A stretch of 38,605 nucleotides of DNA from Patescibacteria group bacterium (GTDB lineage: Bacteria; Patescibacteriota; UBA1384; 2-12-FULL-50-11). The notes beneath the pieces were generated by a model. It was not told the origin of the DNA, made no database searches, and saw only the letters and a list, made by a program, of their open reading frames with translations. The DNA is taken from NCBI GenBank assembly GCA_041477655.1, contig JBGOUP010000002.1, positions 1 through 38,605 on the forward strand, in the 5' to 3' direction. Positions within the stretch are counted from its first letter, which is position 1; each line of letters opens with the position of its first letter. Positions 30,234 through 31,848 of this stretch are shown piece by piece. The position numbers and the translations under genes were made by a program.

Positions 30234-30262
30234 TTGACTATTATTCGTTGTTCGTTTATACT
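30234..30262 (+). promoter_or_regulatory. sigma70-type promoter
   Basis: TTGACT (30234-30239), a 17-nt spacer, then TATACT (30257-30262). Confidence 0.65.
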
Positions 30263-30291
30263 CTGACTAGCAATTTTAGGAGGCTAGCAAA

Positions 30292-30519
30292 TTGAGACAG
30301 CAGAAAATTGGTCATAAACGCATATTCGATCTCCATACAGCCCGGGCATTTGTCCGGCAAGTGACGGAGTCTGGCGACCCTGCCGAAATCCAATTAGATC
30401 GTCTGATCGATATACAGACCGAAGAATCTAAGCGATTGAGTAGGGGCAGTAAGCGGTATCTGGAGGCCAGCATTGACGACCTCCGCCGCGAAGTCAGCCG
30501 GCAAAAGATGGCTAAATAA
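30292..30519 (+). CDS. 75-aa helical hypothetical protein (P1)
   Basis: AGGAGG at 30278-30283, an 8-nt spacer, then TTG 30292. It is flanked by its own promoter and terminator. No known domain. Confidence 0.6.
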   Translation: MRQQKIGHKRIFDLHTARAFVRQVTESGDPAEIQLDRLIDIQTEESKRLSRGSKRYLEASIDDLRREVSRQKMAK

Positions 30520-30527
30520 TCTCTGCC

Positions 30528-30554
30528 AGACCGGCGCCCTTGGCGCCGGTCTTT
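30528..30554 (+). terminator. terminator hairpin after P1
   Basis: AGACCGGCGCC (30528-30538) / GGCGCCGGTCT (30542-30552) is a perfect 11-bp stem, followed by TT. Confidence 0.55.
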
Positions 30555-30586
30555 GATATCTCGATTGATTTTCCGCTTCCAGGAGC

Positions 30587-30615
30587 TTGATATTCTCAAT
30601 ACCTAGTCTTATAAT
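30587..30615 (+). promoter_or_regulatory. sigma70-type promoter
   Basis: TTGATA (30587-30592), a 17-nt spacer, then TATAAT (30610-30615). Confidence 0.7.
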
Positions 30616-30647
30616 CCCCATATCCAAACTTTCGACGGGAGGAAAAA

Positions 30648-31103
30648 GTGGGGAAGCAACTTTCCATATCAATGTCAGCCGATCTCTTCTGGCGGCTATA
30701 TCTGCAAGAAGTGTTTAACCCAGACAAACTCAATACCCAGAGCTATCGGGCCGTACTTTTTGGCTTCCCTGAAATAGCCAGAGACGATGAGTGGTGGGTT
30801 TGGGGATTGAAAACTGCCCGAATCTTCAATGACTGTGACGAGATAATTGCAGGCCACTTTGAGGTGAGTCGCGGTAGCATAACCACCTGGCCATGCGGAC
30901 TCCACGAAATGGCCGTTCGCTGGCTGATGGACGAGTGCGGTTTAGTGATTATTGATACCACTCGCTGCCCAGATCGCTTTATCAACATCCAGCACAAGAT
31001 TGGGCAAGGGAAGCATCTGATGGCTGGTAGCAACGTCAGCTTTCACTGGTTTGATTTACCAGGAGGAGCGTACACGCTCGGCGCCATCGTTGAGTTTCCG
31101 TAA
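30648..31103 (+). CDS. 151-aa hypothetical protein (P2)
   Basis: GGGAGG at 30637-30642, a 5-nt spacer, then GTG 30648. Trp- and Cys-containing globular sequence with no family recognised. Confidence 0.6.
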   Translation: MGKQLSISMSADLFWRLYLQEVFNPDKLNTQSYRAVLFGFPEIARDDEWWVWGLKTARIFNDCDEIIAGHFEVSRGSITTWPCGLHEMAVRWLMDECGLVIIDTTRCPDRFINIQHKIGQGKHLMAGSNVSFHWFDLPGGAYTLGAIVEFP

Positions 31104-31122
31104 ATATCGCAAACACGCTATT

Positions 31123-31157
31123 GGCGGGGTGGATTTTTCCACTCCGCCATTTTGTTT
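31123..31157 (+). terminator. rho-independent terminator T1
   Basis: GGCGGGGTGGA / TCCACTCCGCC followed by ATTTTGTTT. A near-duplicate lies at 31814-31848. Confidence 0.7.
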
Positions 31158-31221
31158 CGATGGGCCTTTAATTTTCGGGCCTTTTGCCCTAAAATACATC
31201 CAGCACACTAGGAGGTGGAAG

Positions 31222-31611
31222 ATGAATGTACCCAACAATTTGAATGCCGAATGGCTAACTAGGACATTAAAAGGAGGGCCGATCGGTGAACTCGAGATGA
31301 TTACTAGAGCGATACACGAGCCATCGGGCCAATCATCAGTCCCAGCCATATACTACAACGTAGCCAAGCGGTCTTTCTGCCGCTGTGCCGATGATCAAGA
31401 GATTGGCCAACTGCCGGATGGCTTTGATGCGGTGGAAGTCTACGGCCCCAAGCAGACCGAGAGAGGTCCGATCACAGGCTTCGTCACTGTCTTTGGCACC
31501 ACCGAGGACATTGCCAAAATCCGCCACGTCTTTACCCGCGTTTCTTACCGCGATTTACGTTGCAGCCCTCGTATCCCGAGCAACGCCCGCACTGGGGCTT
31601 GGCAACTATGA
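31222..31611 (+). CDS. 129-aa hypothetical protein (P3)
   Basis: TAGGAGGTGG precedes ATG 31222. The ORF-track start at 31051 would read through terminator T1 and overlap P2, so I reject that extension. Confidence 0.55.
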   Translation: MNVPNNLNAEWLTRTLKGGPIGELEMITRAIHEPSGQSSVPAIYYNVAKRSFCRCADDQEIGQLPDGFDAVEVYGPKQTERGPITGFVTVFGTTEDIAKIRHVFTRVSYRDLRCSPRIPSNARTGAWQL

Positions 31612-31802
31612 ATATGAGACTAGGGATCGGCGATGTCCGGGTCAAGATCGAGGCCATCAGACAGTCAACACTCGACATCTACATAAGGCTCGATAGGTTG
31701 AAATCTTACCGCCAAAACCATGAACGAGACATGACACCCCCAGCCAGAAAACACCTTGACAAATTGATTTTTGATTTACACCACTGGGTGTATTTTGTCT
31801 AA
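31608..31802 (+). CDS. 64-aa helical hypothetical protein (P4), possible paralogue of P1
   Basis: ATG 31608 overlaps the P3 stop (ATGA). It shares LDRL-x15-(K/R)(R/K)(Y/H)L(E/D)xxIxDL with P1 at identical spacing. Confidence 0.5.
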   Translation: MNMRLGIGDVRVKIEAIRQSTLDIYIRLDRLKSYRQNHERDMTPPARKHLDKLIFDLHHWVYFV

Positions 31803-31813
31803 ATTCGTCCAAC

Positions 31814-31848
31814 GGCGGTGTGGAACCTTCCACCCCGCCATTTTGTTT
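31814..31848 (+). terminator. rho-independent terminator T2
   Basis: GGCGGTGTGGA / TCCACCCCGCC followed by ATTTTGTTT. It matches T1 at 30 of 35 positions by hand count and abuts the doc stop. Confidence 0.65.

Follow-up and report, generated by a model that had tools for sequence, protein, structure and literature searches.

A lineage-restricted cluster of four small genes beside Phd-Doc and MazEF in a Berkelbacteria-like genome, with a tentative toxin-antitoxin-like reading

The four genes and their expression signals

A cluster of four small genes, P1 to P4, lies at positions 30234 to 31848 of a 38,605-nucleotide stretch of contig JBGOUP010000002.1 from a Patescibacteria group bacterium (assembly GCA_041477655.1), and this whole stretch is referred to here as the window. 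The cluster is very probably real and partly conserved, and its four open reading frames (ORFs) are found on direct reading where an earlier inspection of the letters alone, the sequence-only reading, had placed them. Their products, with lengths in amino acids (aa) and isoelectric points (pI), are as follows.

30292..30519, + strand: P1, 75 aa, TTG start, basic (pI 10.1), founding member of a family with P4 and L71, an ORF of a relative
30648..31103, + strand: P2, 151 aa, GTG start, acidic (pI 5.4), Trp-rich, globular
31222..31611, + strand: P3, 129 aa, neutral
31608..31802, + strand: P4, 64 aa, basic (pI 9.9), with an ATGA overlap with the P3 stop

A codon-usage score trained on the long genes of the window makes the annotated frame the best of six for all four ORFs, with values of 0.00-0.09 bits per codon, at the low end of the range of real genes here; the value for P4 is about zero, though its frame is clearly the best of six. 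The public record has gene calls for P1, P2 and P3, and P4 is absent from the public protein collection in three start versions. No signal peptide or membrane segment could be read from the sequences of P1-P4. A longer P3 of 186 aa, starting at TTG 31051, is rejected because the ribosome-binding site precedes the ATG at 31222; it would also span the hairpin T1 (listed below), and the coding score of its extension is negative.

The putative expression signals also lie where the sequence-only reading had located them, as does the ATGA overlap, and all three ribosome-binding sites were read directly.

30234..30262, + strand: P1 promoter-like site TTGACT-17-TATACT, 10/12 matches, upstream of the P1 ribosome-binding site
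30267..30296, + strand: two CTAGCAA(A/T)TT(G/T)AG direct repeats on either side of the P1 ribosome-binding site
30278-30283, + strand: P1 ribosome-binding site AGGAGG
30528..30552, + strand: hairpin after P1, AGACCGGCGCC-CTT-GGCGCCGGTCT, with arms of 11 nucleotides (nt), 100% complementary
30587..30615, + strand: P2 promoter-like site TTGATA-17-TATAAT, 11/12 matches
30637-30642, + strand: P2 ribosome-binding site GGGAGG
31122..31157, + strand: T1, a G+C-rich hairpin of 12 base pairs (bp) plus TTTTGTTT
31209-31218, + strand: P3 ribosome-binding site TAGGAGGTGG
31814..31848, + strand: T2, a hairpin plus TTTTGTTT, adjoining the doc gene, which is convergent, at its 3' end

The P1 and P2 promoter-like sites are the two top + strand matches within 29500-33500, a region in which promoter-like sites overall are not above chance (7 vs 5.0 +/- 2.2 expected) and terminator-like sites are enriched (14 vs 4.3 +/- 1.8). 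The direct repeats around the P1 ribosome-binding site (13 nt, 85% identity, spacing 17) possibly form an operator or a translational control site. TTCGTT likewise occurs twice within 30200-30300, and the short repeats are found at the P1 promoter as well as at the ribosome-binding site. The hairpin after P1 (-23 kcal/mol, z -4.7) had been described as a perfect 11-bp terminator; the stem is indeed perfect, but its U-tract is weak (UUGAUAUC), so that the terminator scan does not list it, and terminator and protein-binding palindrome are both candidate roles. T1 folds with -30.6 kcal/mol and is followed by AUUUUGUUU, and T2 folds with -18.2 kcal/mol and has one internal mismatch. Between T1 and P3 no promoter passes the scan, and by eye the gap holds one weak TTTAAT-17-TAAAAT; the expression of P3-P4 therefore probably needs either read-through of T1 or a weak promoter. 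By the look of these signals, P1 would be a transcription unit of its own, and P3 and P4 appear to be translationally coupled.

Searches for homologues

As had been supposed, P1-P4 belong to no recognisable family. Nothing is found for them at E <= 1 in Pfam, NCBIfam and PADLOC, nothing significant in PHROGs (the best match is that of P1 to an unnamed PHROG, E 0.23), and nothing significant among PDB proteins by sequence and profile searches. A word-index search of 5.8 billion proteins returns only P2 and P3 themselves for these two queries. An exhaustive phmmer search of 1.84 billion cluster representatives, for which the four proteins were concatenated into one query, gives one true relative, P0004 (164 aa), and this of P2 only; the P2 relatives P0004/P0008 share 35% identity with P2 (BLASTP E 1e-28), and a profile search with P2 and P0004 finds only the two known proteins. 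The candidates P0005-7 are rejected as relatives of P3, being long repeat proteins that score by summed short motifs.

No relatives of P2 occur in the scans of Joint Genome Institute (JGI) metagenomes and IMG/VR, and none of P3 or of the P1 family in those of IMG/VR. At the DNA level the island has no match in the GenBank phage and PLSDB plasmid collections, and P2 and P3 have no protein match among the GenBank phages. PADLOC-DB 2.0 assigns 0 families to P1-P4, to the homologues of P1 and P2 or to their neighbours on the related contig L014, and the family searches with the relatives are no more informative. The AlphaFold2 models are unusable, with a mean predicted local distance difference test score (pLDDT) of 38.4 for P2 (from an alignment of two sequences) and of 35.0 for P3 (from the single sequence), and a Foldseek search of PDB with the P2 model gives nothing at E <= 0.001 (best E 1.4, probability <=0.08).

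The corresponding locus in a second lineage

The gene for P0004 lies on L014, a contig of 180 kb, in the position that corresponds to that of P2: PilC, PRC and a variable stretch are followed there by GroES-GroEL. The P2 homologue is present at this PilC-PRC...GroEL locus in L014, L015, L016 and L017, which amount to three strain-level loci of one second lineage; the third strain, represented by L016 (a JGI contig of 804 kb) and L017, shares 97.4% identity with L014 over the stretch. Identities between L014 and the window are 88% for GroEL, 59% for PilC, 43% for PRC and 37% for h162 (an orphan protein of the interval), and at this divergence, where the identity of most proteins outside the core is 35-45%, the 35% of P2 is therefore ordinary for a fast-evolving protein. 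Substitutions between P2 and its homologue follow a coding pattern (codon position 2 < 1 < 3).

Upstream of the P2 homologue, L014 has an ORF of 69/71 aa, L71, with a TTG start after GGAGG, which is uncalled there and has a gene call in L016 alone among the three strains. L71 is followed by an extra 67-aa ORF and then by a strong hairpin, and a promoter-like TTGACT-17-TAGAAT, equivalent to the P2 promoter of the window, lies directly before the P2 homologue. Both lineages have a strong hairpin and a separate promoter between P1 and P2, and P2 thus appears to have a promoter of its own that has been kept in both.

The L014 P2 homologue has a 13-aa C-terminal extension and an ATGA overlap with a 32-aa ORF that is homologous to residues 6-23 of P3 (NLKRKWLTRMLGDKILGE against NLNAEWLTRTLKGGPIGE; score 43 vs 19.6 +/- 3.7, 0/5000 shuffles). 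About 40 nt past this ORF stands a hairpin of the T1/T2 type, GGCGGGTTGGAAC...TCCAGCCCGC-TTTTGTT. P4 is absent in the sister lineage, and further downstream L014 has an unrelated 192-aa ORF and then, on the opposite strand, a truncated doc that is 69% identical to the Doc of the window over 62 residues; neither the 192-aa nor the 67-aa ORF is related to P3. In L016 a frameshift and the deletion of 22 nt fuse the P3 remnant through the hairpin to the 192-aa ORF, so the remnant is decaying, and differently in the two strains; a 268-aa ORF after the L016 P2 homologue is accordingly no full-length P3, as it results from frameshift read-through into the 192-aa ORF. A 2.2-kb segment, with the doc remnant, h162 and a thioredoxin-reductase-like gene, is present in L014 and missing from L016. 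The conservation outside this genome on which the sequence-only reading depended is thus found in part, since P1, P2 and the hairpin are syntenic in the second lineage, as is the start of P3, but P4 is not there.

Nucleotide changes between L014 and L016 are concentrated in the P2 homologue (10001-10495 in both), which has 11 nonsynonymous vs 3 synonymous differences and one in-frame codon indel, at a ratio of nonsynonymous to synonymous polymorphism (pN/pS) of 1.1. The corresponding counts are 0/1 for L71, 0/0 for the 67-aa ORF, 0/1 for the 192-aa ORF and 2/8 for a Replic_Relax gene; pN/pS is ~0.1 for these neighbours, and the contrast is significant (Fisher p = 0.007). The P2 homologue takes 14/23 of the substitutions in 1.45 kb, a 4.5x higher density (p = 1e-4), and this excess may reflect either diversifying or relaxed selection, as both fit. 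The Replic_Relax (PF13814) gene, which has a PHROG replication-initiation match, belongs to the PRC-GroEL interval of the relatives (L014 3755-11651; L016, L017). The same interval holds a 666/682-aa orphan, the C-terminus of which has diverged by 7% between strains (pN/pS 1.4).

Layout of the operon

T1 and T2, including their T-runs, are identical at 30/35 positions (86%). Their motif occurs nowhere else in the window, and among the first 15 loci compared it is found only after the P3 remnant in L014/L015; it is also seen in L016. At the P2-P3 junction the window holds ~90 nt without counterpart in L014, including the P2 stop region and T1, and its P3 leader with the ribosome-binding site aligns to the coding sequence by which the L014 P2 homologue is extended at its 3' end. 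T1 is absent between the P2 and P3 homologues in the relatives. Because P2 and P3 are ATGA-coupled there without a terminator, and because T1 is a near-copy of T2, the older layout would have been P1 as one unit and P2-P3-P4 as another; an ancestral operon of P2-P3-P4 and one terminator would have received a copy of that terminator in the lineage of the window. The sequence-only reading had seen two mirrored modules, P1+P2 and P3+P4, and this view is not supported by the relatives, in which P2 and P3 are the genes that overlap and no terminator separates them.

P1 and P4 as probable members of one small family

Local alignment of P1 with P4 gives a score of 43 against 23.0 +/- 4.3 for shuffled sequences (p = 0.0016), and the alignment is ungapped over 51 residues in the register that the sequence-only reading had described, with the pattern LDRL-15-[KR][KR][YH]L..I.DL common to both proteins. 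The paralogy proposed there has in this way passed a proper alignment test at modest significance, although default BLASTP misses the alignment. P1 aligns with L71 without gaps over 65 residues (score 55 vs 22 +/- 4, 0/5000 shuffles; BLASTP E 6e-5), and P4 aligns with L71 (p = 0.019) in exactly the register predicted from the P1-P4 and P1-L71 alignments. The transitivity of three ungapped registers appears to be the stronger argument for paralogy of P1 and P4.

In a ranking of 3,840 ORF segments from the window and the 15 loci, a hidden Markov model built from P1 and L71 only has P4 as its top non-self match (E 0.053, 11.6 bits; next 5.9), and P1 comes first when P4 is the phmmer query, so that the two are mutual best matches. 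No extra members of the P1 family were found in the window and the 15 loci, and an 80-aa ORF upstream in L014, which looks alike by eye, was rejected (p = 0.2-0.8). P1 and P4 are probably distant paralogues, which is not the same as proven ones, and the pattern of their residues suggests that both are helical.

Genomic setting

The window is a chromosomal segment of a Berkelbacteria-like bacterium within the Candidate Phyla Radiation (CPR), as judged from gene content (ribosomal protein S6, SSB, EF-P, NDK, GroEL). Further genes include an XerC/D-like recombinase and a type IV pilus operon, and the best relatives of PilC (60-65% identity) are found in Candidatus Berkelbacteria and other Patescibacteria metagenome-assembled genomes. 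Independent sediment-metagenome contigs, from among 18 sediment runs that hold the sequence, are identical to the window and span every gene junction, which excludes an assembly chimera. The 18 runs give only identical low-depth contigs and no within-population variants from which a ratio of nonsynonymous to synonymous substitution rates (dN/dS) could be taken, and no RNA runs were found.

On its left the island is flanked by a PRC-barrel gene and two tRNA genes, and on its right by Phd-Doc, MazEF, three orphan secreted/membrane proteins (h151, h162, h214) and groEL. The tRNA pair and the two toxin-antitoxin modules agree with what the sequence-only reading had stated.

29859..30017, - strand: two adjacent tRNA genes, both atypical
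31847-32233, - strand: Doc, toxin of Phd-Doc
32242-32475, - strand: Phd, antitoxin of Phd-Doc
32518-32898, - strand: MazF, toxin of MazEF
32846-33094, - strand: MazE, antitoxin of MazEF, closing the Doc-to-MazE block 31847..33094

The Phd-Doc and MazEF proteins match their Pfam families at 1e-9 to 1e-21; the antitoxins Phd and MazE are basic here (pI 8.0 and 9.2), and the toxins Doc and MazF are strongly basic. In seven relatives the interval adjacent to PilC-PRC has a different gene content each time, and in 3/7 of them Phd-Doc lies near PRC with other genes in place of P1-P4. The PRC...GroEL interval is therefore regarded as a variable hotspot, since its contents differ in every relative, and they differ between strains as well.

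Several features of the surroundings deserve record in their own right. The tRNA at 29859-29934 (-) scores 60 bits with Rfam and has its CCA encoded, but its anticodon loop has 8 nt (CTATTAGA) and ARAGORN reports it as 'tRNA-?(Asn|Stop)(atta)'; its body resembles tRNA-Ile, by comparison with that of B. subtilis. It is not a one-off assembly error, because an independent metagenome contig (run X5) is identical, and JGI metagenomes hold no exact match to its anticodon arm. The tRNA at 29943-30017 (-) has the anticodon CAG (Leu) and a short variable arm (75 nt, type I body; Rfam 49 bits), which is unusual in bacterial tRNA-Leu, and an A.C mismatch closes its anticodon stem. At the corresponding locus of the L014/L016 relatives there is no tRNA. 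A perfect 20-bp palindrome (CCACCCTTGCGCAAGGGTGG) at 30070-30089, between the tRNA pair and the P1 promoter, may be a bidirectional terminator/insulator or a binding site.

A 214-aa predicted membrane protein without Pfam match is encoded at 34381-35025 (-) in a patch of low G+C (0.39 vs 0.47-0.50; 0.33 at third codon positions), and its gene was probably acquired recently. An ORF of 307 aa at 5856-6779 (+) has a Phd/YefM-like N-terminal match under the Pfam cut-off (24.8 vs 29.8 bits), in a region where G+C is high (0.54) and GC skew strongly negative. Two giant ORFs lie at 11935-18033 (+; 2,032 aa) and 19446-24377 (-; 1,643 aa), and the latter stands immediately upstream of pilin-like (N_methyl) genes that belong to the type IV pilus operon.

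Interpretation

P1-P4 may be a lineage-restricted accessory cluster of a toxin-antitoxin-like (addiction) or regulator-plus-effector kind, and this statement as a whole, mechanism included, is given a probability of about one in three. P1 and P4 would be small, probably helical proteins that bind nucleic acids or neutralise a partner, in the manner of regulators or antitoxins, and would control or neutralise two unrelated globular proteins, P2 and P3. P1 would act as the separately transcribed regulator, by a logic like that of three-component toxin-antitoxin systems, and in the genome of the window T1 would throttle the expression of P3-P4 relative to that of P2.

The features that suggest a toxin-antitoxin-like cluster are the sizes (64-75 aa for the small partners and 129-151 aa for the others), the ATGA by which P3 and P4 overlap, the basic character of small P1 and P4, which is that of Phd and MazE in this genome, and the position next to Phd-Doc and MazEF in a variable region. 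The decay in the sister lineage, in which P3 is truncated and P4 lost while the homologue of P1 stays intact and that of P2 is changing, follows an order of loss that toxin-antitoxin logic would allow, but it would fit simple deletion plus relaxed selection equally well.

Other observations weigh against such a cluster. No family of toxins, antitoxins or defence proteins in Pfam, NCBIfam, PADLOC, PHROGs or PDB is homologous to P1-P4, the structure models (pLDDT 38 and 35) are unusable and Foldseek gives no match at E <= 0.001, and the helicity of P1 and P4 is suggested by sequence pattern only. P1 and P2 are apparently not co-transcribed, which is atypical for type II pairs, P2 is acidic where Doc and MazF are basic, and the P1 homologue of L014 precedes a different gene, that of 67 aa, so that the pairing of partners is not fixed. 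Only two lineages carry any part of the cluster, which makes co-occurrence statistics impossible. With no PADLOC match, no usable structure and two lineages only, the defence or toxin-antitoxin system that the sequence-only reading had suggested is best called a guess from context.

It is unlikely, in our estimate, that P1-P4 are instead the left-over cargo of an integrated plasmid-like element, namely its maintenance or regulatory genes, which would have entered the locus in the common ancestor, with the window retaining the small genes only and the relatives the replication gene. The Replic_Relax gene lies 1.2 kb from the P1/P2 homologues in L014/L016/L017, and these homologues have further orphan genes around them in the stretch from PRC to the doc remnant; insertions and deletions at the strain level, including the 2.2-kb segment, and the lack of all four genes in the distant relatives with Phd-Doc beside PRC would agree with such an origin. 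However, within 20 kb of the island the window lacks any replication, integrase or transfer gene, the island matches its surroundings in G+C content, no direct repeat of a tRNA end is present and the island is on the 5' side of the tRNAs, and plasmid, phage and IMG/VR collections hold no match. Such an origin would be compatible with a toxin-antitoxin-like mechanism, the two not being exclusive.

Cellular genes of the lineage that have nothing to do with conflict, e.g., two small basic DNA/RNA-binding regulators and two host-association or envelope effectors that lie beside toxin-antitoxin modules because the region is permissive, form another unlikely alternative. CPR genomes are rich in orphan genes, and small orphan clusters are common there. 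The unrelated secreted/membrane orphans h151, h162 and h214 share the interval, h162 is conserved in L014, and the identity of the P2 core (35%), close to those of PRC (43%) and h162 (37%), suggests vertical descent at ordinary rates. Against this stand the dispensability of P3 and P4 in the sister lineage and the pN/pS of ~1.1 in the P2 homologue, where its neighbours have ~0.1; P1-P4, moreover, have no signal peptides or membrane segments.

A more far-reaching form of the toxin-antitoxin-like reading, quite improbable as it stands, is a CPR-specific conflict system (addiction or abortive infection) made entirely of new folds, in which a duplicated family of small basic neutralisers or regulators would serve two unrelated effectors, with P2, as effector or sensor, diversifying between strains. 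A new anti-phage defence of the abortive-infection type, with the fast-evolving P2 as sensor or effector, is very unlikely. The toxin-antitoxin neighbourhood, the hotspot of amino-acid change in the P2 homologue (11 vs 3), as arms-race genes would show, and the fact that CPR bacteria are largely without CRISPR-Cas (PMC4742961) would suit it, but the cluster has no PADLOC match, no recognisable enzymatic domain and a range of two lineages only, and a pN/pS near 1 equally fits constraint relaxed once P3-P4 were lost. There is also little chance that any of the four ORFs fails to be a gene. Doubt is greatest for P4, given that it is unannotated in three start versions, absent in the sister lineage and near zero in codon-usage score, yet its frame is the best of six, it overlaps P3 by ATGA, a terminator comes right after it and it is the top match of the P1+L71 profile; P1, P2 and the P3 N-terminus have homologues.

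The remaining candidates are dismissed. Prophage moron genes, which the sequence-only reading had also considered, do not fit a chromosome segment with housekeeping genes and without any phage genes in the window, and no homology of P1-P4 to phage or plasmid proteins is found in PHROGs, IMG/VR, GenBank phages or plasmids. An integron cassette, considered because T1 and T2 flank P3-P4, is rejected on the grounds that these are plain G+C stems with a T-run, terminator-like and not attC, that the window has only two copies of the hairpin and that its sole tyrosine recombinase is XerC/D-like and 22 kb from the island. An integrative element targeted to tRNA genes is similarly rejected, since the island is 5' of both tRNAs, with no repeat of a tRNA fragment, no integrase nearby and no shift in G+C.

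Comparison with known systems and significance

In type II toxin-antitoxin pairs of the HigBA, MqsRA and HicAB type, the toxin gene comes first. P3 (~130 aa) followed by the smaller basic P4 with an ATGA overlap is alike in this order, and P3-P4 similarly have a terminator of their own and lie among other toxin-antitoxin pairs; they differ in having no sequence relation to any toxin or antitoxin family, no promoter that passes the scan and a strong terminator upstream, and P1-P4 lack the family homology that marks type II systems. Omega-epsilon-zeta (pSM19035) and paaR-paaA-parE are three-component toxin-antitoxin systems with a separate small regulator. The small basic P1, upstream in a unit of its own and followed by an operon of small genes, has a similar arrangement, with P4, a second copy of the family of P1, sitting within the operon; P1-P4 have no homology to these systems. 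The adjacent Phd-Doc and MazEF are like P1-P4 in size class, neighbourhood and basic small partners, and differ in that P1-P4 match no family and P2 is acidic, whereas Doc and MazF are strongly basic. By analogy, the cluster seems closest to a toxin-antitoxin locus of type II or with three components, the kind itself being part of the conjecture.

Predicted genomic islands have been described for Patescibacteria in general (PMC12455944), and the fixed PRC...GroEL interval, with content that differs even between strains, resembles them, although nothing like P1-P4 is described there. The families of P1-P4 are new and are known from two lineages of uncultured bacteria. Protein databases miss much of the cluster, P4 being uncalled in any version and the P1 homologue called in 1/3 strains, and the present value of P1-P4 is that of a defined candidate for expression tests and not of a discovery. 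If the toxin-antitoxin-like reading is true, the cluster would provide new toxin and antitoxin families from the Candidate Phyla Radiation, the conflict systems of which are poorly known.

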